A stretch of DNA of 63,193 nt, counting the filler, from Hausera hauseri (Eukaryota), in NCBI GenBank assembly GCA_046269625.1. It is 12 parts of 12 records of this genome, joined end to end, with 100 filler letters (N's around TTAATTAATTAA, not from the genome) between each part and the next. Parts side by side here need not be neighbours in the genome. Positions count along the whole stretch, not along the records: positions 1 to 4,414 come from JBJURY010593445.1; 11 more parts are not named here. One strand, given 5' to 3'. This document shows positions 1-54,849 of this stretch, one piece after another. Position numbers and translations under genes: made by a program. The notes beneath the pieces are model-generated. The model did no database searches and was not told where the DNA came from. It was given only the letters and a program-made list of their open reading frames with translations. Numbering within the stretch: the stretch's first letter is position 1; each line of letters starts with the position of its first letter.

Positions 1-2690
1 TGGGGACGCCAATGCCATCTTCATTGCTTCAAATGCTTCGTTGCAAGACTCGGTCCATACCAGTTTTTTGTTGTTTATTCCGCACATCTGTTCTAATGCC
101 TTAGCTTTTGTGGCATACCCTTGAATAAATCTCCTATAGTAATTACAAATCCCTAAAAAGCTTCTCAGATTTTTTACACATTTTGGTTTCTTAAACGATC
201 TGATGGCGTCCAGCTTGGAGGGATCCGTTTGTATTCCTTTGTTATTCATAATGTGTCCTAAGAATTTTACCTCCTTTTTTAAGATGTGGCATTTTTCTGG
301 GTTTATTTTCAGTCCCGCCTTTTTGATCTGATCTAGTACTTTCTCTAGTATTACATAATGTTCTTCTAATGACTTCAAAAAGATCAATATATCGTCTAAG
401 TATACTACAGTTTGTACTTTGGTGATCAGTTCTTGTAATGTATCCGGCGCTTCTGCTATATCAAAAGGCATTCTGTTGAAACTAAATTGTCACTGTTTAG
501 TTGAAAAAGCTGCTTTCAACTAGGATTCTTCTAGTTCGACCTGGTAACATGAGTTTCACAGATCGATTGACGTGAAATATCTAGCCCCATATAGTTTATC
601 CACCATTTCCATCATAGTCAGCACCGGGTACGCTTGTCTTTCTGTGAAGAGGTTCAACTGTCTAAAGTCTAGACAAATTCTGACATCGTTTTTCTTTCTT
701 CCAGACGCAGATCATCAGAGTATTCCTAGGTGAATTACATTCCTTGATGATACTGTTTTCCCATAAGTTTCGGACGGCCTCATCGATTTTAATTTCTAGA
801 TTCACTGGTTGTCTATGAAGTTTGATGTTAATTGGCGTGCCTTTTGTGTCTGTTCTATGCTTGATCAATGTTGTACATCCGATATCCCACTTGGCATAAA
901 GACTTCTTGGTTCTTCCGTACTATGTGTAATACCACTGTGTTTTCGTTTATCCGCAGAATCTCCTTCGCTCATTTGAATCGTTCTTCATTCGTCACTTTT
1001 CGACCAAATTTTGTTTCTACGTTGCATACATTATACCTTTGTTCCTCTCCATCTTTCTGTCGCCAACTTAATTCGATTCCAAGTCTTTTGTAGTTCCATT
1101 CCTCTTATTATTTCTGGTGATATATCTGTCACTACTTTGAATGTTACACGCTTCTGTACTCTTTTGAGTTTCACATTTACGGTCAGTTCATCTATGCAGT
1201 TTAGAGGGATACAATTTGAACAACGGTGCGTGATATCTGATTTATCCAGCCGGACATCTGTAAATCTTTCAAACATCTTCCTACTCATCACATTTACCCG
1301 TGCCCCTGTACCCAAGAGGCAGTCTTCCCATCTAACTTGTATCTTTATTTTTATACCTGGCCGTCCTTGTAGTTTATCGTACGTAATATGCTCCTCCGTC
1401 GATCCCTCAAGGTAACAAATTCTCTCTTCATCGAGGCTCTCGTTTTGACTTTCTGTAAATCGTATTTCTTCGTTTCTGTTCCCAAAAATTTCCTTTTTTA
1501 TGAACCTCCGTACCTTTTCCTCTGTTCTTTCCTTCATTTCTTCAATGCCTTGTCCATTTCTTTCAATATTTTGGGAGCCTTTGGAGTTGTTTAATATAAT
1601 GCCCCGACTAGCTCCACTTCTATCGAAGCTCTGCTTTTTGGAGTTGTCGACTCTAATGGATTCTTCATAATCTTCATCAATATTTGCAACAAATGCGTTC
1701 CTGCTGTTCACCCGTTCTCCATATCATTTCTCACCATACCCCGTCCTTTTGTAATTATCGGTAAACAAATTTTGTCGTCTTCTGCTCTTATACAATTTTG
1801 TATAACATGCTTCTTCCCTGTGCCCTCTATTGTAATATCTATTGCGTTTTATGTTTATGCAGTTTCGCCTTGTTTCCTTGCTGACCTCACCCATAGCATA
1901 TTATTGGTTTCCTTTCCGGGCAACTTCTGTTAATGTGCCTATCTTTCCCGCAACCAAAGCATCTTGGTACTTGTTGGAGGTTGCATGTCCGGCTTGTACG
2001 CCCGACTTTCTGGCACGACCAGCATTTCACCAACCTCTTTGCCTGTGTATTGTGCAGTTTTAAATCCCTACTTTCTTGTCTTCCTTTGACAAATTTATCC
2101 ACCATCACATCCCGATAACTCCGTCGACTATTCACTGACTGTATTTATCTGATCCGTCTTTGTTGCCACTTCGTGAACTTTCTGTATTTTCACTTTGATT
2201 TGTTCTACGCTTTTTTCGTCACTGTGGTAGATTTCTTTTCGCATCTCTGAATTGTCATAACAGTAAATCATCAGTTCCTCTGTTAAAGCTTCCATGCGTA
2301 ATTTTGTGACTAAAGATTCCCTTCACCAGTAGTTCGATTTTGTTGAAGTAGGCAGCCAGTTCTGTCCTCCTCATTCTGTAGTCCAAGGCCTCCCTCATAT
2401 CACCGCACAGCGTTGTGCGTTTTGCAAAGACTTCTCTCAACCGGTTTTGGTTCCATTTAACCTTCTGGCTCAGCAGATGGTATTTTTCTTGTGCTTCATC
2501 CACCAACAGGCACAAGACCGCGGTTTCTCAGTCAGTCTCCGACATCTTTATGAAGTCGAAGTATCTTTCGCATTTTCCAATAAAGGTTTTCACGATGTCA
2601 TCTTTATGGAATTCTGACTTTCTTCTCAAAGTCTCTTGCAGCGTTGGTCGCCATGTCAGTAGATCTCCCGACCTCAACCTCACTCGATGA
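1..2690 (-). mobile_element. Degenerate Ty3/Gypsy LTR retrotransposon (gag with two zinc knuckles, protease, RT); truncated at window start
   Basis: Minus-strand translations give knuckles CWSCQKVGRTSRTC and CFGCGKDRHINRSC (1887-2135) and protease-like CLLGTGARVNVMS (1031-1711). RT motifs include RMPFDI, VVYLDDILIF, KCHILKKEVKFLGH and LRSFLGICNYYRRFI (1-970). Many stops and frameshifts. Confidence 0.93.
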
Positions 2691-2691
2691 T

Positions 2692-2825
2692 TGTAAGATA
2701 GAATTATCCATAAAAGATTTATGAAAGTTTATATAACACTTATCTCCTTCATTCGGGAAATAAATCTTATTTTCTTTCTTTTCTAAATTTCCTGACTTTC
2801 TGTTGGTTGTCTCAATTTCTCCTCA
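2692..2825 (-). repeat. Probable partial 5' LTR of the Gypsy element
   Basis: Minus strand ends ...ATTCTATCTTACA just upstream of gag, preceded by AT-rich ATAAA motifs. No second copy is available to confirm. Confidence 0.35.
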
Positions 2826-2829
2826 TAAG

Positions 2830-4414
2830 CTGCAAACCCGTGAATGATATTTCATTCCAGGAAATAAAACTATTAGATATTTGGCCAGATTACGAACTGA
2901 CAATAGAAGAAGTTTTAAAATTCATACGTGATCCCAATAAATGGATGCAAGGATGGGACCAAAAATGGCATAACAAGCTAATAGGAATAATGGAAGATCA
3001 CAAACTAACTTCTGTGGAAACTGGGTTCGTGAAAAGACTTATTGACGAAATTGATCCAGACTCTAAAATTTTAAAGATGACTAAGGTAACATAGCTGTTA
3101 GTAGAAATATCCGAAATTGACGTCAGAAAATTGAGACAATTTCAGAATTACATACGTCACGCTCAGAAAACCCAAATTCGCCATAACCAAAGAAAAACTG
3201 AAATAGAAGAACCAGAGAATTGGATCCGTACAGAAACAAATATGTTCTGGCAAAATCAGAAATAGCTAATATAACAGAATTCACACAGAAATGGCAATGA
3301 GAAATAACGTCCGAGCTAATCAATTATCAACAAACGGATTTATTCAAGCAGATGAACTTGGCCACTTGTTTACCTTGCCATATCAGACTTCCGGTAACAG
3401 ACATTCTTCTGAACATCACGAATATCCGAGATGCAACAGAAATTACGTGAAATAAGAAAAATAGTACAAAACGCCAATCGAATCCAACCACCAGACTTCC
3501 CCATTGACTATGGACTTCCCGAAAACCAGAATGATCCGAAATGTGATGCGTATTTTGATGCAATAGTTGCCGAAAACCCGAAAACTCCAGTATGCCTATA
3601 TGAAACGGAAATCCACCCAGAGTCGGAGATTCAATGTGGAAATGCTTCTGGACTCGCCGCTAACAGAAAAGGATTTCATCGAACTAATTAACGTAAATAT
3701 TACTGAAAAGAGGCTAATTCAACTTACTCCTACTCTAACTAAATTGTCAAGTGAAAACACAATTTATAGTGCTGTGCCAAAACGTTTGATAAAAAATACA
3801 CTAAAATCTTAAGGGCTAAACCTAAAGTGATGTTAAAGGCGAAGGTGTCATCTGAGTGGATGGATAAAAAAGAATGCGAGTTTACGACTTATTCATCTTT
3901 GAGGAACGTAAAGCCATGGTTGCTAAACAATGGTGTCACGAACGAACTAAATTATAAACCGTATTTTAAAGGCAGAATCTTAGAGGATCTAGAACAATTA
4001 ATAGACATTGGTATTATACCCGACGAAACAAACCGAATATTGGCAGTAATCACAAAAGAACAAACTAAGGAAGGAGCCCCACGGAAGGCCAAAACCGAAC
4101 AATATGTAGAACAGATCATGGGAATACGAGACACTGCAATGTACTTTGAGTACTTGCAAACGGGTGAGGACAAGGAACAATATGATAAAAATTTAGTGCC
4201 ACCAACTGCTGCAAGACAGAAGCGCCCAGTTGACCGACCTTAGAAAATATGCAAAGAAAATGATTATAATGGAGACTTGATTAGAGAATTAATACAAATA
4301 TCGATACCGACTTTCAATGCGGATAATGAAGAACTAGTCGAATTGATGAAAATTTTAACACGTATTGTTAATTATTCCAGTCTCCATGGCGACGTGTTAG
4401 AAGATAAAGAGAAA
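2830..4414 (+). pseudogene. Diverged, disrupted copy of the unknown long ORF of the 26822-32112 element
   Basis: ORFs 2807-3094, 3431-3691, 3567-3812, 3827-4243 and 4277-4414 align in order to 27391-27942/27007-27345, 31875-32105 (both middle ORFs), 31336-31725 and 31129-31314. One segment is 70/104 aa identical by manual alignment. Confidence 0.9.
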
Positions 4415-9750: not shown

Positions 9751-10742
9751 TGTTTAATCAATAATTATGGTAATAAGTGTTTTATCATTTATATGTCTGT
9801 GTAATAAAGCGTGTATATTTTATTTTCTATTGTATTTCTCTATGTACACTTTATTCCTGTAGACGTTATTTTTATAATAGTGGTAAAAGGTTTACTCAAA
9901 TCTATATTACAAAATATGTATGCCACTTATAATACACCATGCATGTCATGTATGTTTGAAAAGGTAAACACTGATCTTGAAGTAATTGAGTTTAAAATTC
10001 TAGTCTAAACATATTTGTATATTTCCCTTATGCTTTTACAGATCGCAAAATAATGGAATTATAAAACATTCGTTTATATTGTTGTAGAATGACAGAATGA
10101 CGCATGAGCAAAAGTCAAGAATTGATTATTAATAATTATCGACCAGTATATTTGAATATTGTCGATTATTAACTGGCATACAGCATTTGTAAATAATATG
10201 TAAACAATATGTTATTCAGTTGATATTGAATATAATCAATTTATTTATTTGATATTTCTGGATAATTAGTTGTAAATTGTAAATAATTGATTGAAAGTAG
10301 AAAATATGGGGGTAGAGCATTCGAAGTGAGTAGTATAAATACTGAACCAAAACGAAGAGGAATGAACAACTAGTAAACTATTGAACTGTTGAGATCTCAT
10401 TAAGCCGCTGAAATGCTACTATAGAACTACTTGTTGATCGGAATCAGTACGACGATTTCCGAGAATTACTGCGAGACGTATATTTATTGAAGATTTATAT
10501 AGGTAAGAGGAGAATTTGTTAGCCTTTGCACAGGATTTGTAAACATCTACAAGCATTCTAAAAGAGACACGTTTGTTTAACGAGAACGTTAAACCAAACT
10601 TGCATAAGTTAAACTTCAATTTCAAGTGTAACTACTGTTATAGTTGGGAGTTGCGTAGGGCCCATCCGTAACTATAACAATATTTTCACACAATTACTTA
10701 AAATAATTAACAGCCAATAAAATTAAAAATTAATAAATTTTA

Positions 10743-12086
10743 ATGAAAAGTTTATTCCATTTCACTAAATTGTTCCAACATATCATACAATCAATAATGT
10801 TTGCAGGTGAATTCACAGAACTCCTTGATAAACTGAAATTTGCAGATTTTCGAGGTTTCGCAGATATATTCGACAAATTAAATTTCATTCTAACGGTTAC
10901 GATTTTGATAATGAGTTCTGGAATTAGCATTCTCAAAAACTATGTTGCTTCTCCAATGCATTGTTTCATGCTAGAAGGACCAGCCGGTTTAATGTATACT
11001 CAGTATATCGAAAACTATTGCTGGGCTAAAGGAACTATACCAATCAGTTCATTGAATCCTGTTCCACAGACTAAGGCAGAATGGGATGCAGTTGATAAAT
11101 ACCGAATTGTGTATTATCATTGGATTCCATTGATTCTTATTTTACAGTGCTTTACAACTTACTTACCAAGAATGATTTCAAAAATTCTCTGTTCCGAAAA
11201 ACTTGGAATAAATTTGGAATTACTAATGGAAAATGTCAGTAAAATCAAAGGTATGCCTGAAAATCAGGAAAAATCAAAATCCATTGCGAAAAAAATCGAA
11301 AACTTTGTATACTGTCATCGGGACTACAGAAACGGAACGGTGGCCTCAATTAGAAGGAAAATTGTTCATTTCTTTGCACCATTGTTTCCCAGTAAAAGAC
11401 AAGGCACAGTATTGACCTTTACGTACATAGTGATGAAATTTTTGTACATTGGAAATTCAATTGGTCAGTTAGTCTTCATAGCAATGTTCTTTCCTTATGA
11501 AGACACGAATAAACTTCAGTTTATATTGCATTTGGTTCAAACATTTTTTGGAAGAGAAAAATGGGCTACAGCAAACGAAATATTTGCAGTACAAACAATA
11601 TGTCATGTTGATAATATAAAAGTGTTGGGTGGCAGTGTTGATCATGCAGCAACATGCAATCTTCCGCAGAATATATACAACGAAAAACTATTTGCTTTCC
11701 TCTTTATATGGTTCTTTATTCTTGGACTGTTGAATGTATATAGTATGTTAATTTGGATTGTACGTTTGTTTTCATGCAAAAGATTTCAATTCTTGAAGAA
11801 ATGCTTAAAGAATGAAGACAAATATGTAAAGGAAGACAAAGAAAAAATAAAGAAGTTTCAATCGGATTTTCTCCTATTTGACGGATATGTAATTCTGCGG
11901 ATGATTTATCTGAACAGTGGAGATCTTGTCACATCCGCAATTGTTGGTCAACTTTATGATATTTACGTAGACAAATACACTGAGATGAATGTTCGAAACA
12001 CAAATAAGCCGTCGAGCATCATTCTTTCATCGGAAAAATTAATTTTGACAGAAGTTTACAATGAAGCCATTGAGGAATTTCAGTAA
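10743..12086 (+). CDS. inx: Innexin (gap-junction protein), single exon; true start may be Met19 at 10797
   Basis: 447-aa ORF with four hydrophobic segments, SPMHCF, YIENYCW, YYHWIP (YYQW motif), TYIVMKFLYIGNSIGQL, F..QTIC and CNLPQNIYNEKLFAFLFIWF. Confidence 0.96.
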   Translation: MKSLFHFTKLFQHIIQSIMFAGEFTELLDKLKFADFRGFADIFDKLNFILTVTILIMSSGISILKNYVASPMHCFMLEGPAGLMYTQYIENYCWAKGTIPISSLNPVPQTKAEWDAVDKYRIVYYHWIPLILILQCFTTYLPRMISKILCSEKLGINLELLMENVSKIKGMPENQEKSKSIAKKIENFVYCHRDYRNGTVASIRRKIVHFFAPLFPSKRQGTVLTFTYIVMKFLYIGNSIGQLVFIAMFFPYEDTNKLQFILHLVQTFFGREKWATANEIFAVQTICHVDNIKVLGGSVDHAATCNLPQNIYNEKLFAFLFIWFFILGLLNVYSMLIWIVRLFSCKRFQFLKKCLKNEDKYVKEDKEKIKKFQSDFLLFDGYVILRMIYLNSGDLVTSAIVGQLYDIYVDKYTEMNVRNTNKPSSIILSSEKLILTEVYNEAIEEFQ

Positions 12087-15169: not shown

Positions 15170-17848
15170 ACTTTTTTAATCCCCATTTAGTGGTCTTTTG
15201 ATCTCAGGAAGGAAAAGTATCTGCTCATGCCTTGTTTCGATAGAAACCGGATATTCCATAACTACCTCTAGTATGTAGCCTGTATCTCCACTGGGATCCA
15301 NNNNNNNNNNGATCCATGTCTAGTATAAGGATGCCTTCGGGATGCTCAATCCACTTGAATTTATGATATGGCATTGGGGCGCTGCTTGCCCATCCATACA
15401 AATTGTTGGCATCCAGGTATGATATATATGAGGTTTCTTTGCATGGATCATACTGGGCTATATACTTCTTGTTAGCCTTACTATACCGAGGGATGGCATG
15501 GCATATTCTGCTTCTAATGCCTCTCTCAATCATGAGGAACATATTGTAATCCTTTATGATCTTCAGCCTAACACCTGTATATCTCAGCATAGCTGCCCAA
15601 CCCATCTCTGGAGCCGTAAAGAAATGAGCCGGATCCAATGCATCCCTGAAACTCTCAAAGATATCCGTCAGAAGGAGCACTTCCGTCTTTAGGTATATGC
15701 CGCTCTATTCTCCTAATTTTTGGCATTGGAATGCATGCCAGACATTTTAACAATGCTGGTAATCCATATCATTGATATTGCAATCAGAGAGGATATTGTA
15801 AAAATCCTTCTTGGCTGGCAATGAGGTCTCATCCAGTGTTTCCATGATGTTATATAGTCATAGGAAACACGCCTTTCCTTTTGACTAGGTCAAATGCAGT
15901 GGAAATAAACCGCTTCGCCTCCTTGAGTTTTTCTGCAGGGCGGTTCTTCACTAAACTGTCAAGTGAAGACGCATGAAACGGAAACTGTCTATGATGCAAA
16001 GCCTGCTTTTCCCAACATGCTTGGTAAATGTAATGTATTTTTCCTCACTATTAGGCATCACATCTATGTTTCCTTCAATGCTGCCCAGTTCCCGAACAAT
16101 GAAATGGATATCATAGCCACTGAGATTAGGGAACACTAGAGGCACATATGTACATGCTTTGCAATGTAGATTGCAGTTGTTGCATGCCGAGACCTGATAT
16201 GTGTTTGTAAAATGGCAATGATCCCCGACTTTATGATTATCCTTAGTGAATGATTTGTAGCACAAGTAACATACTGTTGCCTTGCGCCATTCTTTATCTT
16301 TCTGCTTCGACATGTTTATTGTATCCTTATGCAGCTGCTGCATATCTTCAATCCTATGAGCCATATCTTCAAGTCGCTTCATGAAATGAGCTGCTGCACT
16401 TGGACCCCTGAATAGATATGGTTCACTGTCCAGTCCTTTGGCATACATGCTATATGATGAGAGCTCATGATATTGGTATGCCGTTGTGCGGCTGTGTTGG
16501 AGGTTAAGACAGCAACTCTGAACTATGCGCAGGATCGCTTCAAAGTCGCAACAGATAACTATTGGGACCTTGATCTTCTTCTCCAACTCCTTGAATTCAA
16601 TGTAATCCTCCTTGGGGAAATCTGGACTGATACAATAATCGTTGTTGCAGTACATCTTGTGCTCCTTCAGCTTCTCCACAGCTAACTTGCCACTGAAATT
16701 GGACAAGCATCGTTTACATATTTCTATTTGTCCATGATGTTTTGTATTATGTAATCCGACTAGTCTCTCAAAGTCTTTGTTCCAAGAATAATGTTTCTTT
16801 TCTCCATCGTCTAGTAGGAAAAGGTCCCTATGATCTTCCAATTCAGCATCGTATATATGCCGGGGATAGAATTTATCATCCTCGTCCAATCCCAAGATAT
16901 TGATAGACAAGTTGTTAACTTTTCCAAATTTTTAACTTCATCAATGGATGGAGGGAACTTGATACATTAGAAGTCATAGTTGTGCTGCACGTCCTTATAT
17001 AGCCAGACTCGTGAAGCATGATTTTTATCTGTTACAAATTTTGATAGAATGGCATACATGAAACACATGTTATCATTATTATAGACATTGACACATACTT
17101 TTTATTAGCGGTCCAATCGGGGAGCTGAATATATGAACTGCCCCACATGGATGAGTTTTTGTGAATATACACAATCAATCTCTTGATGGTTGCCAGAGTC
17201 CATGGCTCTTTTTATCCGGGCTCTCCCCGGCTTCACGGATCAGCTTCTCGTGCGCCTCTTGCATTCATACTGCTATACTGGTGTTTTCCAATATGGGTCT
17301 ATTTTTGGTCTTGAAGGGCATATTGGGTTCTTCGCCATCAACATTGATGCATGTGAGCGCCAGTTTCATATTCACCATAAAAGCTTTGAGCTCAGCCATG
17401 ATGTCCTGAAGAATTTCTTCTGTCTCGTCCTTTGTGTATAAGAGGAAATCTTGGAAGATTGTTTGACCAGTCGCCTCAATAACATATCTGCAACATTTTC
17501 TCTTTAATGCTGCCGCATCAACTAGCCGCTGTCTTTGGTTTTTGATGGAGCCGGTGCGTCTGATGTGGCCGTGCCTGATGTGGCTGCGCCTGATAATGCT
17601 GCGCCTGATGCGGCTGCGCGTTTCAATTCTGTAATATACTTCCAAACTGCTGCACCAGATCCAGCAGCTTAATGCGAGGCAGAACACTGCGAAGCAGATG
17701 CATCAAAATTATGTTGCTCATTAAAGATGGCATTCTTTGACTTTGATGCAAAGTTACTCAAATGATGTTTGTGATCATAATAAAACTTTATGTAATCTGC
17801 GCCGCATACATCCTCACATCCTGGACATATATAATAGCGGATCCGATT
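15170..17848 (-). mobile_element. Polinton/adintovirus-type family B DNA polymerase (DNA_pol_B_2) pseudogene, copy A, with endonuclease VII-like Zn insert; 3' truncated
   Basis: Motifs GSSYIQLP, CDFEAIL (ExoI), CYLC...DHCHFT...CNNCN, NLSGYDIHF (ExoII), IDSFRF, VLLLTDIFESFR (ExoIII) and YLDANNLYGWA (motif A). Frameshifts and stops present. Confidence 0.9.
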
Positions 17849-17948: not shown

Positions 17949-20573
17949 AGGGTTCCTTTGATGGATCATAATCTGCCATGTATTTGTTGATGGCCTCACT
18001 GTACCTGTGAATGGCCTGGCATATTCCACCCCTGATGCCTCTATCAACCTTGAGGACCATATTGTAATCCTTTAATATCTGGAGCCTTATGCCGGTATAG
18101 CGCAGCATCGCCACCCAGCTCATTCCTGGAGCTGTAAAGAAATGGGCTGAATCTAACTTGTGGCTCTTAAGCGTCACATACCGGAAGCATTCGAAGACAT
18201 CAGTAAGCAGCAGCACATCTGTGCGGAGATATATATCACTGTATTCCCTTATTGTCCTTCACCTCAAGGTTTGCCATACTCTTTGGGCATGTTCATTGTC
18301 AGCATCGCTAATATGACTGGATGATAACTGACTATAAAAGTCCTCCTTGACCGGTAATGCTTCTTTATCCAGTGTTTTCCATGAAGTTATATAGTCTTGG
18401 GGGACACGCCTTTCCTCTTGACAAGGTCAAATGCAATGAGAAAGAACCGCTTCGTCTCCTTGAGTTTTTCTGCAGGGAGGTTCTTTACTAAACTATCCAG
18501 TAACGAGCTCATGAAGCGGAATCTGTCTATGAATCGAAGTCTAATGCGGCCCACATGCTTAGGGAAAGTGATATATTTTTCCTCACTGTTTGAAATAACA
18601 TCAATGTTTTCCTCAATATTACCCAGTTTCCACACAATGAAGTAGGAATAATAATCACTGAGATTGTGGAACACTACAGGCACATATGTACATGTTTTGC
18701 AACGTAGAGTGCAGTTTTTGAATGCTGAACCTCGATATTTGCCTGTAAAATGGCAATGATCCCTGACTTTATAATTATCCTTGGTGAAGGACTTGTCGCA
18801 CAAGTAACATGTTGCCTTGCGACATTCATCTTGCTGCTTCGACATGCTCATTGTATCCTTATGCTGCTGAAGCATGTTTTCAAGCCTATGAGCCATGTCT
18901 TATAATCTCTTCATAAAATGTGCTGCTGAGTCTGGCTCTCTGAATAGAAATGGTTCACTGTCCAGTCCTTTGTCATACATACAATATGATGAGAGTTCAT
19001 GATATTGGTATGCTGTTGTGCTGCTATGTTGGGGATTAGGGCTACTGCAGTGAACTGGGCTGAGGATGGCCTCAAAATCACAATAGACGACAATTGGAAC
19101 CTTATGCATCTTCTCGAACTCCTTGAATTCCAGGTAATCCTCTTTGGGGATTCTGCTCGGATGCAATAGTTTGTATTACAGTAAGTCTTTTGCTCCACCA
19201 GCTTTTCTGCGGATGTCTCCCCATTAAAATGGTTAAAGCATCTCTTCCAGCCTTGATTTGTTCTGGGATATTTGGGATCCTATGGGACGCTCACAATTCT
19301 TGATCCAGATGAAATCCTTGTTTCTCCATCTAGCAGAAGTAGATACCTATGATCCTCCAATTCCTCCTTGCACACATGTAATGGATAAAATTTGTCCTCC
19401 TCCAATCGAAAATTGTTGATTGAGATGTTTACGCATTAAAATTTCACGACTTCATCTAGACTTGGCGAGAATGAAATACATCTGAAGTCGTATGTGTGCT
19501 GCACTTTGTCATATATCCAAACTCGGGAAGCATTATGTTTATCCTGGAGTAGTTTTGATAAAATGGCATACATGAAGCACATGTTGTCATTATTGTGGAC
19601 ATTGACACTTGCCTTTTAACTATGGATTCAGGAAGCGGTATGTAGGAGCTGCCTCTCATTAGCGAATACTTGTGTACATGTACAGTAACCCCTTTATTGT
19701 TGCTAAAGTCCAACCGCTCTTGTACTGGCTTTCTTCGGCTTCACGGATGAGCCTTGCATAGTCCTCTATAATGAAATCCTTAATATTAAAGGATTTCAAT
19801 AGTGGCCTGTTCTTTGTCTTGAAGGCTCTATTAGACAACTCTCCATTGACATTGGTGAAGGCGGCTTCCAATTTGAAGTTCAACTTAAGGGCCTTCAGCT
19901 CCAACAAGTTGTCCTGGAGAATTCCTGTTGCCTCCTCCCTTGAATATTCTAGGAAATCATGGAGGGATGTCTGCCCAACGGCTGCTATGAAGTATCGCCG
20001 CACTTTTCTCTTCAGTGCAGCTGCATCAAATGGCCGCTGTATTTGGCTTTTTGATGGAGCATTTGCTGCTACTTCTGGCAGGCGTTTTGGTCCTGCATCA
20101 TGCCTTGTTGTTAAAGCAGGCCTTGCTGCTAAAGCAGGCTGTGCTGTAAAGCAGGGTGCTGCTCATTATATATGACCTTTGGCTTTGTATTGAAGTCTCC
20201 TTCACATACAGCCTCACATCCAGGGCAAATGTAATAGAGGACTCTTGAATTTGTATCCATAATAGCTCCTCATGGCGTTTTGGCAATTCTGAAGGTTGTG
20301 CATTGCACATGTGCAATAAACATATGAACTGCATCTTTTATTTTTGGCACAAAAGTCGTTATTGGCATATTTGGTAAAGGAAATCAATTGCTGTTTATGG
20401 ACATTGTAAAAGTCTTCATAACTAGTTTGGCACACTACTTCACATATAGGGCATATATAATACTTAACCATGTTGTACATATGTCCAAAGTACTTCATAA
20501 CACTGGTAATTTTCCGGCTCGTGGATTTGAGCCAAACATTCGCTGTAAAGTCTGCACATCTAAAATCAATCAA
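17949..20573 (-). mobile_element. Polinton-type PolB pseudogene, copy B (close relative of copy A)
   Basis: Motifs YYICPICEVVC, FKTKNRPLL, RGSSYIPLP, VYCDFEAIL, RDHCHFTGKYRG, FHNLSDYY, KRKGV, LLLTDVFECFR and GIRGGICQA. Confidence 0.9.
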
Positions 20574-26821: not shown

Positions 26822-26898
26822 CCAGTATTGCGTCGAAATACGCGTCCCATTCCGGTTCATTTCCGACATCTGGAAGTCCAGCACCTACCAAAGCTACG
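26822..26898. repeat. 77-bp terminal direct repeat (identical to 32036-32112)
   Basis: CCAGTATTGCGTCG...CCAAAGCTACG is the first and last 77 nt of the contig. This is the typical k-mer overlap of a circular assembly path. Confidence 0.97.
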
Positions 26899-29399
26899 CT
26901 CGTTTTTGCACATTTTCTCGAATTTCTTTCAACCTGGGCTGTATTTCCTTCATCTGCGTAGTCCGGAAACCTACTCCATTTCCACAAGCATATTGAATCA
27001 TTTTCACTAAGTCGCCGAATTCATTGGAATCAATGAGTCTTTTTGGTGATAATCCGTTAATTCGATAATTACATCCTTTTGCCATATTCGTACAAATTCT
27101 CGCTTATTTTTGATTTCTGATTCGGTAAAAGCATATTTGTTTCGGTAGACTTCGAATTCTTTTGTTAGTTCATCTAGCCTCGTTGCTCTTTGCTCTGTTT
27201 TGATGCACGTTTCTTCGACTTGCTGTAATTTTGGCATCAGCTGTCTCATCCACTCGTCATTAATCTCCGCCATTTCTACCAAAAAGTAGGCTAACCCGTA
27301 CATTTCATTTATAATTTTTGAGTTGGGATCTATGGCATCTGACAATTTCTTTACAAACTTAGATTTCTGAAAACTAATATGCTGATCATTTCATATTTTT
27401 ATCAATTTGGTATGGAAATTCTGATTTGATCCGGCCATCCATTCTTGTGGTTTATGCAAAAATCTTATTACATCTATTAACGTAGTTCCGTGTTCCGGAC
27501 AAATGTCTAGGGTCTCAATATCTTGAATTGAGATCTCTTCGATAGGTTTTTCTGTCAGACGTTGAACTCCTTCTAGTCGGACGTTTCTTAATTTTGGATA
27601 GAAATTGCATTTCATATTCCGTTTTTCCGTAAAGTTCGTTTCTTCAATCATTTTATAAATTTTTTCTAATAGCGTTGCTTTTTGCTTCTTTTTCATAAAA
27701 TTAAGTCGCCTTAATGCTTCAAATCTCGTTCGGATGTATATTTCGGCTAGTATCGCCTCTAAATTTTGTGCGCTTTCTTCTAATTGTCTCTTTACAGATG
27801 GCTGGCTTCCTGGAAATTTTTTCTTTCGGTCTTCTACTATTTTGCTCAATCTCATTACTAGTTCGGACCATTTCGATAACTGATTGACAATTATTGGTTT
27901 AGCCATTATAGCCTTATCTAGCATTTTGTATGCGTCCTTCAATTCGTCATCATAATCCCGCTGATATATCTAAATTCGTCTTTATATTCATCGAATTCTA
28001 AGATGCATGCTGTTACTACGTATTTAGTTTCTTCATTATTTTGAGACATAATTCGATTTCTCAGACTATAAATCTGTACTCGCTTTTCATTTTCTATTTT
28101 GATCCGATTTTCCAAGCTCGTGTATTGTTTAGGTACAGCAAATGCGATTTTTATCATTTCCATTAAAGGAAAAATATCTATTGGGTCTATATCCAATATT
28201 TCTAAATCGATATTACTTCGGTTGTTGACTGATTTTTTCTAAGTTGGTTAATTATCGTGTAGCGAATGTCATCCACCATATGCTCTAAATTGTGGACTAC
28301 TCTCTTCCGTTTTGGATTCGCTTCCAACGCTGATAACAACGTTTGCGCTTTAGTGACTTTTACGTCGACACTGTCTTCATTCTTATTCCATTCTTCCAAA
28401 AACTCGACTCCACTTTTAATCCATGAATCTAGTTCATGTTTCCATTTTAACAATGTTTCTGCTGATACCCCTTCAGGTTGTCTTGCGTCGATTGCTTCAG
28501 CAAACTTTCCTTCGCTACGTAGTTTCAAACTTTTATATAACTTCTCGGCGAATTGTTGTTCTTTCCCGGATATGTCTACTTGTTCGCTGATCTCCTTGAG
28601 CCTTTCTAAATTTTGTTGTAATATTTCGGGCTCTAGACACTTAATTCGCATTTTCTTTAGCTCATCGGCGTTCTTCCATGAACGTCGAATTTTCCATTTT
28701 TTTGGATCAAAATCGTCAGTATTTTCCATTTCTTCCTCACTAATAGGAAGTAGACAGATCTCGTTAATCTCATTAGCTGATCCTATGGACTCGGCGGTTC
28801 CGACAGGCGTGATTGATCCGATTTCTGGTTTATTCACATTATGTCCTATGTCATCTATAACGATGTTCGGACTACTTGTTCCTTTAATTTTCTCTTTAGT
28901 TATTTGTGAACGTGAGCAACTTCTACGTTTCGTCTTAAATGAAGGGCTACGGCCTCTATTTTTCGTAATTATAAGTATTAATGGTTCCATAAATTCCCGT
29001 TCTGCAGTATCGTCCTCAACATACTTATCTACTTTTTCAACCGTGAACTCAGGCGCTACGTCTAAGTCGACTTCCGTCGATGGGCCTGGTTTATCCGATG
29101 GTTTATTATTCGTGGGAACATTCTTTTTCCGTGTCATGTCGCTTCGTTTTGGTGCTATTGCCTGCTCAGAGTCAGTTTATGGTTCTACAAAACCATGATA
29201 TACTTCTAGTAGTATTAGTTTATCTCTGTACTCTTTTCTAGCTGTCAATATTTGTGGATTACAAAATTCAGGCTGAGCGTCTAGAAACTTCCGTAAATCT
29301 TGTATATCGATAATAGTGCCTGTATCTCCACTAACACCATACTTCTCATCTAAATTTTCATTAGTTCTGATCATACTAGTATCTATTGGCTCAGTAAAT

Positions 29400-30449
29400 G
29401 AAACTCTACGTGGGTTTGGACATGATCTTGAAATGTGTCCTTCTTTCCGCAAGTGAAACAAAATGAGTTCCCGTTTCTACCGACTCTCTGTCGACCGTCT
29501 TCGTTTACCGGCGATTTAGATCTATTTGTACTCTTATTATACTAGGTTGCCGCACTGTCAGCGTTTCGTCGATTATCACTATTTCGGCTATCGCCGTTTT
29601 GATTCGAGTAGTTTGAGCCTCTATAATTTCCTATATTCCCATCGCAGTTAAAATCTGGTCGGTTCGTACTAGTAAAATTATTGCCTCGGCTATACCTATA
29701 ACTGTCGTTATTATTTCGGTTCCCATAATTTTTGTTATTCGTATATCGTCTATCATCTCTTCCATGATTATCATTCCGATTTATGTCCGTGCGATCACTT
29801 CGATCATTATTTCTGTCGATTCTATCATTATGTTTGGCATATCTGTGAAGTGCCATTTCTAAGTCTTGAGCTAACCGTAGAGTCCCTTCAAAGTTTTCCG
29901 GCCTAGCCAAAATTAATTGCTTAAGCAAATCTCGTGACCAAATACCATGGATTAATTAAGTCGTCATCATGACATCTAGATCTGGCGGTGTTGCCTTTTC
30001 TGCGGCATCGCGTTCCGCATCTGTTTTCGCTCTAGCTACGTTGGCTATACGCAGTGTGTTTATATAACTATTGGCAAGTTTCTTCAACGCAAATGCGAAT
30101 TGCGTTACTGATTCACCTTTTGTTGTACTCTATTCTGAAATGCCATAAGCTTTTGTTGCGGCGTTACTGTCGGTAATAATTTACGGTTTAATGCTCCTAC
30201 CAGAGAGGACCAAGATTTCTTCTCGTCATTAGTAAGTTTGCTATATGCGTCAGCAGCTAGATTTTTCAAATATAACGACAAGGGTTTAATCATTACTTCA
30301 GGAGTAAGGCTAGCACCTTCTGCGTGCAATTTGCAAGTTCTCAAGAATTCATTAAGCCCGTCTGGGTCTCCATCATATGCCGGCAAGTTTAAAGAATCGA
30401 AGGTGAAGATGTCTAGTTTCTGCGCTACTGGTTGGTTGTCTGCTGCCAT
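29400..30449 (-). pseudogene. Retrotransposon Gag (capsid-like region, N/D/R-rich linker, CCHC zinc knuckle)
   Basis: LPAYDGDPDGLNEFLRTC...YLKNLAADAYSKL...WSSLVGALNRKL...FQNRVQ. The knuckle CFTCG(K)EGHISRSC is split by a 1-nt frameshift near 29445. Confidence 0.85.
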
Positions 30450-30788
30450 GTTAATTACGTTATTTGTTGCTAAATCTACTTAATTTATTTTATGTACCTC
30501 AAGTGGAATTTTAAACTGTTTATTTTGCGCGACAACGTCTAGTTTGATTCTATTCTCGGAATTTGAAAGTTTATCTACTTTTTGTGTATCTCTATAAATA
30601 TTTCGACGTGTCTCACGTATAGGTGAATTGTCTTTTAATATATGGTTTACTTTTGACTTACCAATGCTTGTTCTCTATTAGAGTATGCGTTACTTATCCC
30701 CCTATTTGATTTTATTTTTGAAATATATCAATTTAATTGGTGTGTAATTATTTAGCTCTTAAAAGTAAAGTCTAGCGAGGTACATACT

Positions 30789-30805
30789 TCCTGCTAGGGT
30801 CGCCA
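30789..30805 (-). promoter_or_regulatory. tRNA primer-binding site (tRNA-Arg-like)
   Basis: TGGCGACCCTAGCAGGA starts 2 nt after ...TATATAACA. Its complement ...TCCTGCTAGGGTCG-CCA looks like a tRNA acceptor/T-stem end. Confidence 0.8.
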
Positions 30806-30807
30806 AA

Positions 30808-30852
30808 TGTTATATATTGGGGTGGCCCTTATTCAACGCCCACTATATAACA
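30808..30852 (-). repeat. 45-bp mini-LTR candidate with 14-bp imperfect terminal inverted repeats
   Basis: Minus strand TGTTATATAGTGGGCGTTGAATAAGGGCCACCCCAATATATAACA. The ends match at 13/14 positions as inverted repeats. Confidence 0.7.
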
Positions 30853-32399
30853 GAATTACACTCAAGATTATTTCAATTCTTATGCAGTTCGGTCTATCGT
30901 AATCGAATAGACTGAATGTACCTTACCGATTTTAATTATTATGCAGGTAATGCGTGCGGTCCTGTGCTGATAATTGAAATGTGCTAAGCTTATAGCTCTA
31001 TTGATTTCGTTCTCTCGATTAGGGTTTATTTTGACAGCTAAGTATAGTAATACTTTCCTTAGTTCTTCATTTGTGTTTTCTACCATGATTTTATCGATTA
31101 CTGCTTCGTCAGTTAAGCTGCTTTTTGATCATTTAAAACGTGAACTTCTTATCAATCTAGCTGCTTCGAAAATTATCTTTTCTTTCTCATCCAGTATATC
31201 ACCTCGAAGGCTTGAATAATTTACAATTCGTACCAAGTTCTTCAATAACTCGTTTAACTCTTCATTATCTGTGCTAAAGATCGGAATTGACATTTGTTTC
31301 AATTCTCTAATCAATTCTACGTTATAATCTACTTCTCACGTTTTCCTAGGCCGACCAACTGGACGTTTCGGCCTTGGCCCTTTTGTTGCTATTTCGCTCA
31401 ACGGTACTAAATTGATGTCATATTTTTCCTTATCCTCGTCTGTTTGCAAATACGCAAAATACAAGGCAGCATTTCGGACTCCCATAATTTGTCCTACGCA
31501 TTGTTCTGCTTTAACTTTGCGTGTGGCTTCTTCTTTCGTCTGTTCATTTGCTATCGTTACTACTACTGGGTTTGTTTCGCCTGGAATAATCCCGACGTCT
31601 ATCAATTGCTCTAAGTCGTTGAGTATTCTACCTCTAAAATAGAATCTGTAATTTAACTCGTTTTTCCCGCCGTTGTTTATCAGCCATTCTCTTACATTTC
31701 TTACGTAAGAATATTTAGTTAACACTCATTCTTTTTCGTCCATCCATTCGGATGATACCATCATTTTTATCGTCATTTCAGGTTTAGCCCTCAAGATTTT
31801 AGCATACTTTCTTATTAAAAGTTTCGGCACCGTGCTATAAATCGTATTCTCACTAGACAATATAGTCAAAGTTGTTATAAGTTGTCGTAACTTATTTCAG
31901 TAATATTTACGTTAATTAGTTCAATTAAATCTTTTTCAGTTAGTGCTGAATTCAGGAGCATCGCCACATCGAATCTCCTGTTCTGTGGGCACATTTCTAT
32001 CTCATTTATTTGTACTGGAGTCATGGGCTTTTCGGCCAGTATTGCGTCGAAATACGCGTCCCATTCCGGTTCATTTCCGACATCTGGAAGTCCAGCACCT
32101 ACCAAAGCTACGNNNNNNNNNNNNNNNNNNNNNNNNNNNNNNNNNNNNNNNNNNNNTTAATTAATTAANNNNNNNNNNNNNNNNNNNNNNNNNNNNNNNN
32201 NNNNNNNNNNNNATAACAAATCGAGAAAAAACCTTTTCATATATTCCTCAGAGTTGTAAATTTTTTAAAAAATTATCAAAGATTAAACCCAAAGGAAAAT
32301 TAAAATGTTGGTTTAAAACTAAGAAAAATCAATTTAAATCTCTTACTATTCGATTGAGTATCAAAACTTTCACAGAAGGACAAAGTTGTGATTCTGTAT

Positions 32400-40924: not shown

Positions 40925-41201
40925 TGACGCATTGCTTAGAGTGTTGTAGCATTGGAGGGGTCAGCGTGTCGATGGGAGGATTTTCTCCACCATGTGACTA
41001 CTCGACACAAAACGTTTCTTTTATTTGGTATGAAATGATAATGACAATATACGTGCTGTAAATATATACTGAACAGAAATTGATTACGTTTTTTGAATTT
41101 TAAATAAAACGTTAGTTCAGCAGCCTTTTTTGGATTATACTTCATTCTGGATTTATTTCTTGCAAACCGGATTTATTTACTATACAAAATTGGTGTCAGA
41201 A
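40925..41201 (+). repeat. LTR (possibly nested, TGTA..TACA 40945-41186) followed by a tRNA-Leu-type PBS TGGTGTCAGAA (41191-41201)
   Basis: Follows the PPT, contains AATAAA (~41103) and ends CTATACA, then AAAT-TGGTGTCAGAA. Confidence 0.65.
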
Positions 41202-41274
41202 AATTGGAAATCAAATTAAAACGAATGAGGCACTTGAAACACTTCGTACGAATGATCAACAGACTAGTGATAAT

Positions 41275-44097
41275 ATGACAGATTCAGAAGTGGAAGAACA
41301 ATTCGAAAAACGAATTCCATTGATCAGTCGAAGCATTGATGAAAAACGAAAATTTTTATCTACAAAGGTGAACAATAACAGTCCATCCGCGTGTATTGAG
41401 GATTTAAAACACATTATATTTCGTAATGTTCAACCGGAGAAATTCTTGATGAAATTGGAATTTCTACGAATTTGTCTGTCGAGTTCACCGATTTCTTGGC
41501 TGAAAGAATTTAATAATGAGAAAAACAAAGGTTTAGAATCGTTGATATCTGTCTTGGGACTCTATATCGATTGTCCGGAAAATTCCCTTTTGTGTTTGAA
41601 GTGTTTGCGTGCATTCGGTAATGTCGGTTACGGTCTGTTGACTCTGATTAAAAGTAAAGAAACATTACTTCATGTCGCACATTGTTTAGCGTCGAAAAAT
41701 CAAAATCTTATGCTTTTAGCATTGGAATTATTGACTTTGTTCAGTTTTTACAGTTATGAAAGCCATTTTAACGTTCTCGAAGCGTTGTACATGAGTTCTC
41801 GACTGCGTAATTACAGTGAACGTTTCGGTCCTATTCTCGAGGGTTTAGCATTTGGAATTACGGATAATCACATGAATTTGGTGACGTCCTGCTTGCAATT
41901 TATTAACGTTATTGTCAATCCGAATTTTCGTGACAATGCAACGTGCTCCAGTCTCGATCCGAGTTACCGATTGCATTTGCGACTGGAATTCGTTCGGTGT
42001 GGAATTAATGATTTCCTTTGCCAATTGGTGAAATCCGATGATCCAGTTATTTGCGAACATGTCAGAATTTTCCAGTCGGACAGTGAACTCGAAGACGAAT
42101 ACATTCAAAAGTACGAAGTGATCAAAGCGTCGTTTCTGGAGCGTAACTGTGTTTATCAATTGTTGAATCGCACCATATTGCACACGAATTGCGATTCGTA
42201 CTTGACATCGATGTTACAACATCTTATGATTATAAACGACAGTCCGATTCGTTATCATCTCTATCAGCTGATCGACAGTGTCGTTGCTGAATTGATTATT
42301 CGCAGTGAAAGTCTCTGTACGGACCCATCGTTGAACCAATTGGATTCATTCAATTTGGGTGAACTATTTGAAAAGTTTCACGATCCGTCGTTTCAGCGCA
42401 ACGCTCAAGAGTTACAGAACAAGTTGGATAAAGTATTGGAAGAAAAATACCAAGCCGAAAGCAAATTGACGTCTCTCACAAACCGTATCGATCAGAAACC
42501 AGGTGAAATACCGGCCCCACCACCGGTGCCACAGCCGCCACCCGGTTTAGTTCCGCCTCCACCACCACCAGCACCGACTGGGAATGGGCTGATGCCACCT
42601 CCACCACCACCACCGCCTGGCGGTGCTCCGGTTTTGAGCGAACAGTTGCCGTTTGGTATAACAATAAAGAACGTGATAAAGCCAAAAAATCCACTAAAGA
42701 AAGCCAATTGGACGAAAATCGATACTCATTTATTGGATCAGAATTGCGTGTGGAAGAAAATCAGCGACAGCAACATGAAAGTTAACGAATTGCTGCACGA
42801 TCTTGATGAGAAATTCAGTACTCGCCCAGTCCGACCCAAGGAGTCAAACGAAGATTCCATATCGATGAATTCATATTCGAGTTTGCAAAGAAAGACAAAA
42901 GACTTCAAAGTTCTCGATCCGAAATCTGGTCAGAATTTGGGAATTTTATTTTGTTCGCTCAAGGCGCCGCCCAATGAAATTAAACGGCGAATACTGGAGC
43001 TCGATGAAGGTCTACTGACACAGACAAATGTCGAGAGTATTTTAAAAAACCTCCCAACTGCCGATGATCTGTCTCGTCTTGTTCAGATGACCGATGACTA
43101 CGAGAATCTCAACGAAGCCGAACAATTCGGCTGCACGTTGGGTTCAATCAAACGACTCCATTCCCGTCTCACGTGTCTGCTATTCAAAATGAAATTCGAC
43201 GAACGAATTTCCGAAATAAAACCGACAATATTGAGTGCGACCGAATCGCTCTGTGAAATTCGTAAAAGTGCAACGTTTCCCAAAATTCTCGAACTCATTC
43301 TGTATTTGGGCAATTTTATGAACAGCAGTTCGAAGTCATCTCAAACCGCCGGATTTAGCCTAACATTTCTGACAAAATTGGCCGAATTGAAGGATGCCGA
43401 CAACGAAATGACGCTGATGGATTTCCTTGTCCGACAAATACGTACTCGCTATCCACAGTTGATTAACGTTGTCAATGAATTCACGTTTCTCGACAAAGCG
43501 TCACGTGTCAGCACCGATAGCATAAACAACGTCATTCGGGAGTTAAAGAACACCAAAGACACGTTAGATCGCGAATTGACATCGTATCGGAAACAATCGG
43601 AAAATGACTGTTTCGTCGAAGTTATGAAGGAATTTATCGGACGGGTAACGGAACAATTGACAATTCTGACAGACATGAACAACAAATTGCAGGTGATGTA
43701 CGTCGATATGGCCAGGTATCTGACGTTTGATTTGAAAAAATACCCGTTGGAGTCGTTCTTTGACGATGTCAAGAAGTTTAAAGACGATTTCCTTAAATCG
43801 TTGAAAGCTATCGAATTGGAAAGTTATATGGAATCAAAACGACAGAAAGCAAAGGAGGATCAAGTTCGACGAGAGAAAGAAAAATCAGAGCGAACGCTGG
43901 GACAGAACAAACGGGCTAACGATGACGATAAGTTGGTGTTAGATCAGTTAATGGAAACGCTGAAGAGCGGTGAAGCATTCGGTAATTCCGATTTGCGGAA
44001 AAAGCGACTGAAGAAAGTCGATAAGTCTCATTTTGTTAACAGATCTCGTTCTCGCAATAATTTTGACTGCAATCTTATGGAATTTGCTCCAGTATGA
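41275..44097 (+). CDS. dia: Diaphanous-family formin (GBD/FH3, FH1, FH2, DAD), uninterrupted 940-aa ORF
   Basis: FH3 LEFLRICLSSSPISWLKEF, CLQFINVIV, RLHLRLEF. FH1 polyproline. FH2 LKKANWTKI, VLDPKSGQNLGI, LELILYLGNFMN, GFSLTFLTKL. DAD VLDQLMETLKSGEAF..RKKR. Confidence 0.96.
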   Translation: MTDSEVEEQFEKRIPLISRSIDEKRKFLSTKVNNNSPSACIEDLKHIIFRNVQPEKFLMKLEFLRICLSSSPISWLKEFNNEKNKGLESLISVLGLYIDCPENSLLCLKCLRAFGNVGYGLLTLIKSKETLLHVAHCLASKNQNLMLLALELLTLFSFYSYESHFNVLEALYMSSRLRNYSERFGPILEGLAFGITDNHMNLVTSCLQFINVIVNPNFRDNATCSSLDPSYRLHLRLEFVRCGINDFLCQLVKSDDPVICEHVRIFQSDSELEDEYIQKYEVIKASFLERNCVYQLLNRTILHTNCDSYLTSMLQHLMIINDSPIRYHLYQLIDSVVAELIIRSESLCTDPSLNQLDSFNLGELFEKFHDPSFQRNAQELQNKLDKVLEEKYQAESKLTSLTNRIDQKPGEIPAPPPVPQPPPGLVPPPPPPAPTGNGLMPPPPPPPPGGAPVLSEQLPFGITIKNVIKPKNPLKKANWTKIDTHLLDQNCVWKKISDSNMKVNELLHDLDEKFSTRPVRPKESNEDSISMNSYSSLQRKTKDFKVLDPKSGQNLGILFCSLKAPPNEIKRRILELDEGLLTQTNVESILKNLPTADDLSRLVQMTDDYENLNEAEQFGCTLGSIKRLHSRLTCLLFKMKFDERISEIKPTILSATESLCEIRKSATFPKILELILYLGNFMNSSSKSSQTAGFSLTFLTKLAELKDADNEMTLMDFLVRQIRTRYPQLINVVNEFTFLDKASRVSTDSINNVIRELKNTKDTLDRELTSYRKQSENDCFVEVMKEFIGRVTEQLTILTDMNNKLQVMYVDMARYLTFDLKKYPLESFFDDVKKFKDDFLKSLKAIELESYMESKRQKAKEDQVRREKEKSERTLGQNKRANDDDKLVLDQLMETLKSGEAFGNSDLRKKRLKKVDKSHFVNRSRSRNNFDCNLMEFAPV

Positions 44098-52833: not shown

Positions 52834-54849
52834 CAGGTGGAACCTCGTTAATTCGACTACCGAATAATTCGATTTACTACCTTAATTCGATTTTTTTCCT
52901 GTCTGTTGAAAATTCAACGTAAATCAACCCTGATAAATAGGCTTTTTTCACAGAAAAATTTAACAATATAACCCGGTTAATTTGACCTTATTTTTTGGTT
53001 TTCTTTATTTTTCAATGTTTAATACTAAGAGAGTAAATCGAATTATCGGGAAGTCGAATTAACGGATATAAACTATATTAATATCTATATTGTATATGCA
53101 AATAAGATGGAACACACAAATTCTATTTTCATTTTATTTTTAAAATGTATTGATACGTTTCTTTCAAATTAACTTGTTTTTCTTTATTATTATTTTTTGT
53201 CATAAGTCTGTTTCAAAGGTTTTTAGTTATTTAATGGTTGAATTTGGAAGTTTAATATTGACCTGCGATTAATATTTTTCATTATGGTCAAAATGTTGAA
53301 TGTGATAGAATGTTGATTAAATATTTCGATTTTAGAACCTAACCAAGCGTTCCGGAACACAAATAGGGAAGTATAAGAAGTACAAAGAGTGTGTCAATAA
53401 TCAGAAGAGAAGAACATTAATAAAAGTCAATGGACAAATCAGCTGATATTACTATCAAGGAAATGGATTCAATGGGGAAAAGAACTAATTATAAAAGTCT
53501 TACTATAAAGGCGAAGCTACAGGCGATCAGTGAGATAGAAGCCGGAAGCCCGATTAAAACCGTTTCCGGAAAATATGTAGTGCCGGCCAATACAGTGTCA
53601 AGAGAATTAAAAAATAAAGAAACAATCCGGATTAAAATTAATAAAAATCCTGTTCTGCTTTCTCGAAAGAGAATGAAATCCGGAAAATTTGAAGATGTTG
53701 ATAAGGCTGCCGTTCAATTCATCACCGAAGTTAGGAGCAACCATTTACCAGTAAGCGGAAAAATAATACAAGTTAAGGCAAAACTTTACGGGATAAAATT
53801 GAACAAGACCTTTAATGCAAGCAACGGATGGTTCAACCGATTCAAAAAGCGTACGGGTTTAAAATTGAAATGTCTTACTGGTGGTACGGCGGAGGCCGAC
53901 AAAATGATTGCCGCAAAATACATTGAAATGACGATGAACCTTCTCGTTAGAATTTATGACAAAAGAGTAATTTTCAATGTGGATGCGACAAATCTTTTTA
54001 GATGTTTTTCAGGGAAATCCTTTGCTCTAAAGGGGGACTCGTGCCAAAAGGGCAAATTTAATAAGGAAAGAGTCACCTTGTTATTATGTGCAAATATGTC
54101 AGGCACCGAAAAAATTACGCCGTTAATAATTGGTAAGACAAAACGACCTCACTGTTTTAGAAACATTCGCACTCTTCCAACTGATTATGACTTCAACAAA
54201 AAAGTGTAGATGAATAGACCCATTTTTGAAAAACGGTTGATGAAGTTAAATGCTGAGTTCAAGAAACAGAATCGAAAAGCATTGTTTTTCTTTGACAATT
54301 GTTCCTCTCACAAAAAAGAACTTCAATCAAAATTAAAACATGCGATTGGAATTTTTTCCACCAAATTTAACAACATTACTGCAAACGATGGATATGGCAA
54401 TTATTCGATGCCTGAAAGTTCATTACAAGAATGAGATAGTTAAAGAAATGTTAGACTGTGTTGAGAAAAAGATGCCACTTACAAAAATTACTTTGTTAGA
54501 TTGTATTAAACAAATTTCAAAGATATGGAACACCATAGTTTTTTCGTCAATTATTCAGAATTGCTTTAAGAAGGCAGGATTTCGTAATGAAGGCTTCAAA
54601 GGCAATGATGGTAACATCTCATTAAATGAACTTTACGAATATGCTGAGCAGAACTTTGAATCGCTGCGGCTGACTTATGACATCGATGAAGACTTTCACG
54701 AATATTTAAATTGTGACGAGAATGTTCTGTGTTATAGAATGATGACTGATGAAGACATACTCGAAAATGTTAAAAATAACCATGATTCATTTTTATTAGT
54801 GACCGAGAGCGACGCTATCGAAATACAAACGGAACAATGCGATAAATCA
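52834..54849 (+). mobile_element. pogo/Tigger DNA transposon (CENP-B HTH + DDE_1), disrupted, right end missing
   Basis: TA|CAGGTGGAACCTCGTTAATTCG TIR with subterminal TAATTCGA repeats. Motifs FNASNGWFNRFKKR, IFNVDATNLF, KERVTLLLCANMSG, FFDNCSSH and FFPPNLTTLLQTMD. Confidence 0.95.

Follow-up and report, generated by a model that had tools for sequence, protein, structure and literature searches.

The DNA that ends the first contig of the window is very probably a decayed copy of an accessory region, here called X, situated between Gag and a class III Env in a single-frame Ty3/gypsy retrotransposon; X carries a predicted, nonconjugatable ubiquitin-like domain (UBL), an AT-hook-like motif, and a likely, worn Bcl-2-like domain. 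The window is the whole stretch of DNA analyzed (63,193 nt, filler included), in which 12 contigs are packed, the first of them at 1-4414. Across the element family we observe the order PBS-gag-X-env-PR-RT-IN, joints that keep the frame, subfamilies that diverged under purifying selection, and a neutral-looking decay of the copies once inserted. The window copy is a dead element fragment that was later struck by another Gypsy: Its 5′ end is truncated by that element, and its 3′ end is the end of the contig (Table 1).

Table 1. Features of the window discussed in the text (positions along the whole stretch)
Feature	Position	Strand	Remark
PBS (2653-2646) and decayed gag-pol of unrelated Gypsy	1..2653	-	Pfam RVT_1
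LTR-like head of unrelated high-copy Gypsy, inserted into X in opposite orientation	2654..2827	-	Matches end at its edge
Decayed X fragment (Gag-to-Env accessory region, gag-X-env-pol Ty3/gypsy)	2835..4414	+	82% DNA identity to G000:C277062
Family-specific X part, including IDPDSKI	2835..3345	+	Stop at 3092 and frame shift near 3200 break the frame
DAYFDAI linker and predicted helices upstream of ubiquitin-like domain	3506..3824	+	Spans the site where contig 26822-32112 is split
Predicted ubiquitin-like domain (NELNY block), without C-terminal Gly-Gly	3827..4058	+	L021 model, Pfam, fold match
AT-hook-like motif site (RPVGRPRK in relatives)	4223..4246	+	Altered and stopped in window copy
First two helices of likely Bcl-2-like domain (IRELIQ)	4265..4414	+	Remainder beyond contig; weak sequence-level support in window copy's lineage
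Last 175 nt of LTR, PBS, gag, X (contig of the other copy)	26822..32112	-	X jumps to LTR piece at ~30981; without env, without pol

Family homology begins at 2835 in the window copy. Its nearest relative, C277062, matches it across the whole fragment and extends to X1 upstream and to env downstream, and seven further loci (71%-81% identical to the window copy) agree with the family order. All four motifs named in the initial annotation are present on the + strand (IDPDSKI at 3050, DAYFDAI at 3545, NELNY at 3941, and IRELIQ at 4280), and its description of this copy as a second, diverged member of the family seen in contig 26822-32112 is borne out by a DNA identity of 71% between the two at 3511-4383 (blastn E 2e-129, far beyond chance). 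For the NELNY block, 70 identical residues out of 104 had been claimed; the best ungapped 104-aa window has 69, and the whole block 89 out of 136. The copy had also been said to run continuously: It is collinear, but the frame is not open, being broken by stop codons at 3092 and at 4241 and by frame shifts near 3200, 3350-3400, 3620, and 3790. The stops do fall at different positions in the two copies, at reference codon 659 in the window copy and 663 in the other, four codons apart. The family-specific part upstream (2835-3345) gave no usable family or fold match in the word-index search, the Atlas, or the family-only profile.

One claim that the window copy does not sustain is that it confirms the gene order. 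It is uninformative on the position of gag because an unrelated Gypsy on the opposite strand, probably a nested insertion into X, occupies 1-2830. This element has a Pfam RVT_1 match at 1-489 (E 1e-16), with 34% identity to the X-family RT probe, and the best 40 scored of 2843 candidates for its head match 2560-2829 only. Among 11 examined copies of the unrelated Gypsy, homology stops at 2825-2829 with dissimilar flanks in five and ends at 2809-2823 in the remaining six; the boundary reads CA then TGGCGAC in eight of the 11.

Contig 26822-32112, whose ends overlap by 77 nt, had been read as circular, with the window copy as validation of the join. The window copy does match both ends and reads through the join without a change of frame (3407-3617), but as a model of the element the circular contig fails. 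Its X ends short of the env signal and is joined at ~30981 to the last 175 nt of the LTR; this joint is spanned by none of 156 loci and is found in one of 40 scored matches, the contig itself. That X is an independent cargo gene of unknown family on a gag-only element, as the initial annotation had it, would agree with a contig that holds PBS, gag, and X without env or pol, and with the lack of matches to the X region alone in word-index, Atlas, and PDB sequence searches. The unique joint and the env that follows X in frame in every contig long enough to show it (see below) make this reading highly improbable, and for most copies it is already refuted. The contig is a one-off rearrangement, and its loop may have arisen by partial tandem duplication or by the nesting of one copy in another. 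A high-copy tandem array is disfavored by exact-piece depths of 7-15, compared with ~9 on a host gene, depth not being equal to copy number; this range covers seven of the eight listed pieces, the eighth, with five differences, having a depth of 21.

The open piece at 3770-4240 has 2624 candidates in the same assembly, and the best 149 other matches are 64%-73% identical to it. From 150 scored matches, the contigs of 60 relatives were taken by long frames or long flanks, a nonrandom sample. All 60 fit a single same-strand order: PBS, gag, zinc knuckle, X, env, anchor, tail, protease, RT, RNase H, and integrase. Among those long enough, gag lies upstream of X in 18 out of 18, env lies downstream in 51 out of 51, protease is present in 14 out of 19, and the PBS (TGGCGACC) in five out of six. 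X, at ~1250 aa, is thus linked to gag or the PBS in most copies where they could be seen, a linkage on which the initial annotation had staked its interpretation; the separate "cargo protein" proposed there is instead the middle of a Gag-X-Env-Pol polyprotein, a layout already published. Of the five contigs without protease, L039 is interrupted, L031 and L063 break off, and L028 (C473799) and L036 (C27227) return to X after the env anchor or tail, an internal duplication or self-nesting that may be compared with the circular contig. A host multigene family or domesticated gene with no retroelement link, for which the host-type nature of UBL and Bcl-2 folds might speak, is scarcely credible: No introns were seen, the candidates number in the thousands, stops are scattered among copies, gag and env are constant neighbors, and the linkage counts refute it.

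The joints are in frame. In L021, env follows X in frame and is a PF24664 class III fusion protein (E 8.6e-41; another match reaches E 2.9e-66); in a sister copy, L127, gag, knuckle, X, and env form one stop-free frame of 2268 aa, with hydrophobic peaks at 1669 and 2229 on either side of the env domain. In L021 and L037, a single frame holds both the env anchor and the protease. Ty3/gypsy features (a CCHC-knuckle gag, the PBS, and a PR-RT-RH-IN pol) are present in the relatives, and the window copy consists of X only. We estimate the coding span at ~10.8 kb; 350-525 nt upstream of the PBS are common to copies, and no examined X-family contig spans both element ends. No Pfam dUTPase match was found in the X family; for a dUTPase-like domain between PR and RT, a profile of nine lineage members gave three PDB matches, all of them dUTPases and weak (E 0.64-0.97). 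An inverted integrase piece of the X family also lies next to the LTR of a different copy, on its upstream side (L032:1200-1607).

A PF24664 search returned 10,706 candidates, including other lineages with single frames of ~2700-4300 aa (up to 4293 aa), and the RTs of these distant lineages are 38%-50% identical to that of the X family. The earlier view of an old element with several subfamilies is supported. In some distant lineages, further frames of 469-837 aa accompany the polyprotein (L111:1917-3323, L112:117-1550, L114:918-2345, L126:7966-9387, and L120:2279-4789), the three scanned having no Pfam match. Long post-integrase extensions, up to ~1270 aa, occur in L118:493-9999 and L117:1-2385; they have no Pfam match at E 0.01, and those of L118 include hydrophobic peaks.

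The initial annotation expected dN/dS well below 1 between the two copies. We find 0.14 (bootstrap 0.075-0.20; 440 codons; pN 0.22, pS 0.69), with synonymous sites near saturation in this comparison. Against 62 copies, five comparisons are saturated and the other 57 have a median of 0.145 (range 0.07-0.46), the nearest relative giving 0.46; family-wide medians, taken over nonindependent pairs, lie at 0.10-0.16 along X and at 0.07 for env. Changes private to the window copy comprise four synonymous and 25 nonsynonymous (ratio 1.7), and those private to single copies among 60 comprise 336 and 1504 (ratio 1.2), by a filter that under-counts synonymous changes. Private changes look neutral; stops are spread across 125 columns among copies. 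Since dN/dS between copies is low and private changes look neutral, X appears to be under constraint while the element is active and to decay after insertion. Both the protein-level constraint and the postinsertion origin of the stops had been proposed from the two copies.

Single-sequence searches with X were unproductive (Pfam on the window fragments, the word index at near length, the Atlas, and PDB by sequence), and a family-only profile gave one coiled-coil match (E 0.047). Domains were detected only after distant lineages had been added to the alignment, which covers the 410 aa preceding the env signal in 34 rows from six lineages and resolves into three parts. A captured nucleoprotein or matrix protein of a negative-strand virus, considered as the source of X, was dropped on the alignment and fold results.

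The first part, the NELNY block, is predicted to be a ubiquitin-like (beta-grasp) domain and to be nonconjugatable. In the relative L021, this region is modeled with pLDDT 84-95 and its best fold match has Z 12.7 and rmsd 1.4 over 74 aligned residues. Foldseek returned ubiquitin, SUMO, or UBL-containing entries in all 44 rows shown, none at E 0.001. Pfam ubiquitin matches nine of the 34 aligned members, and profile matches in PDB are ubiquitins and UBLs. The UBL profile of lineage A, to which the window copy belongs, matches that of lineage B at 97.6%; of the lineage pairs, A-B, B-C, and D-E have strong profile links and A-C and A-E modest ones, and F (L123), a lineage tied weakly to the others, has none. 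A search of a 1.84-billion set yielded mostly polyubiquitins and five single-stretch relatives, all unnamed or "hypothetical." Gly-Gly is found at the C terminus of the domain in none of 63 copies. Integral ubiquitin-like domains of the ubiquilin, RAD23, OASL, and parkin type share the beta-grasp fold (12%-27% identity in the fold matches) and are likewise set in a larger protein without Gly-Gly; the X domain differs from them in being part of a retroelement polyprotein. At the second part, the AT-hook-like site, the GRP core is kept in 37 of the 45 copies that fully cover it, and GRP-K is present in distant lineages too; Pfam AT_hook reaches only E 0.1, in two of the 34 aligned members.

The third part is a helical domain, and modeling suggests that in the window copy's lineage it probably has a Bcl-2 fold. 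Pfam Bcl-2 matches 17 of the 34 rows (best E 7.8e-7), which is also the number of rows from lineages D and E; the env-bearing frame of C395256 passes the Pfam cut-off (31.5 against 31.4 bits). The top 29 fold matches of the model are all Bcl-2-fold proteins, the first other fold appearing at Z 4.8, although the model was built from an alignment containing the D/E rows, which may have imposed the fold; the best match (Z 7.6, rmsd 3.4, 111 aligned) is within the range that the fold tool calls common for helical bundles. Foldseek gave E 0.6 or worse. A Trp at the BH2 position is present in 52 of 57 copies, lineages D and E have a BH2-like motif, and a hydrophobic stretch follows the domain. Within the window copy's lineage, the first member has no Pfam Bcl-2 match, the D+E profile does not detect the domain, and profile-profile comparison gives E 0.009-0.1 with other lineages and 0.2 with host-type Bcl-2. 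Several divergent host-type Bcl-2 domains occur in the assembly (L160-L168) and are donor candidates, from mixed species.

These observations bear on the main rival interpretation, in which the element and the UBL are the same and X is a structural assembly part: The helical domain and signal anchor would tether Gag at the membrane where Env is made, like a matrix or leader peptide, and the Bcl-2 fold would be a mere scaffold or would have been lost in this lineage. NWGR is the BH1 motif of the Bcl-2 family; it occurs in three of eight host-type Bcl-2 matches of the assembly and is absent from all 59 copies of X, as the structural interpretation would have it. The fixed position of the helical domain, which precedes the env signal in every lineage of the alignment, also speaks for it, as does the missing sequence-level Bcl-2 match in the window copy's lineage. 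The fold matches further include the poxviral proteins A52, N1, A46, and B14, which are mostly nonapoptotic. Lineages D and E, however, retain a Pfam-detectable Bcl-2 domain with the BH2-like motif, and Burro, a comparable planarian element, also has BIR domains (in the accessible text of PMC6431247), which points to control of cell death. We regard the structural interpretation as possible, short of probable.

Under the preferred reading, that of a Gag-X-Env-Pol chain with a Bcl-2-like domain in X, the hydrophobic stretch that follows the helical domain would serve at once as its tail anchor and as the Env signal. This would leave Gag and X tethered on the cytosolic side and send Env into the ER lumen, with Pol back in the cytosol past the Env anchor; the element protease and signal peptidase would cut the chain. 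Such a topology would make this retrotransposon polyprotein flavivirus-like. X itself might modulate the host, most likely by dampening stress signaling or cell death in cells where the element is active, and might work by protein docking rather than through a canonical BH3 groove.

The closest description in print is that of Burro (GYPSM1), giant gypsy-like LTR retrotransposons of planarians (Arkhipova and Yushenova 2019, PMC6431247). As far as the accessible text goes, Burro has in a single frame Gag, a CCHC knuckle, a Ubi2/SUMO-like and a BCL2-like domain, an in-frame Env with matches to mononegavirus fusion proteins, protease, a dUTPase-like spot, RT, RH, and IN; the frame has 4873-5140 aa, the element exceeds 30 kb, and there are two or three knuckles (PMC6431247). 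The X family, set beside this description of Burro and not beside its sequence, is alike in the UBL, the Env, and the single frame; the Bcl-2 domain is clear in sister lineages and weak, barely recognizable, in that of the window copy. The X family differs in a coding span of ~10.8 kb compared with >30 kb, in one knuckle compared with two or three, and in having no BIR, ankyrin, MATH, or SMC match (E 0.01) in the gag-to-env frame of L127. Because it lacks the giant size (>30 kb and a frame of ~5000 aa), we file it as Burro-like and not as Burro.

A second likeness is to the GAG-ENV-POL errantiviruses of HSV/gB type, with a class III env, in Platyhelminthes, Nematoda, and Bryozoa (Chary and Hayashi 2026, PMC13524379). 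The X family shares the class III env between gag and pol (51 out of 51 contigs); the env motifs of L021, judged by eye only, resemble six Schmidtea rows of group C1a, and the reported spans of 14.5-18 kb, apparently including 3-kb flanks, would suit its size. In the accessible portion of that survey, the gag-to-env region has no annotation, the terms "polyprotein," "fused," and "dUTPase" do not occur, and no PBS is listed for the Schmidtea rows, compared with TGGCGACC in the X family (PMC13524379). Among the studies found, as far as their accessible text goes, the domain cassette is described only for Burro (PMC6431247). Judged from sequence and published descriptions, the X family is a new, compact family built like Burro and the gag-env-pol errantiviruses.

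The assembly is a mixed sample. Besides bacterial-looking fragments, its COX1 matches include at least seven distinct genes of animals, spread over three genetic codes: One COX1 gene uses the vertebrate code, five use the invertebrate code, and one 14-kb contig is read in the flatworm/echinoderm code. The COX1 gene of that contig has three degraded copies elsewhere in the assembly, which suggests that the nuclear genome is that of this organism. An innexin search meant to place the host had no match at E 1e-60. From this mixed assembly we infer that the element's host is likely a flatworm. The window also contains an innexin (10737-12086, 449 aa) and a diaphanous-type formin (41116-44097, 993 aa), each in a single uninterrupted frame, and a fragment of a Tc5/CENP-B type DDE transposase (53424-54209). 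Two of its contigs (15432-17551 and 17951-20060) are 71% identical over 2.1 kb, one frame of the pair having a weak Endonuclease_7 match (E 1.7e-4); together with a DNA_pol_B_2 match at 55724-56317, they are possibly Polinton-like elements.

The layout of the element being already in print, what is added here is that the Burro accessory plan also appears in elements of compact size and, within one assembly, in several distant lineages; modeling supports the UBL and, to some degree, the Bcl-2 fold. The 2019 suggestion that Burro elements meddle with apoptosis and ubiquitination (PMC6431247) becomes testable on small isolated domains. More tentatively, the cassette of UBL, AT-hook, Bcl-2-like domain, and signal anchor may be an ancestral core of a flatworm gag-env-pol clade and not an oddity of Burro, standing before env in at least five lineages with RTs as distant as those given above; the tail anchor of the Bcl-2 domain would then also be the signal peptide of Env, and these elements, in their thousands of copies, would have a virus-style modulator of cell death of their own.
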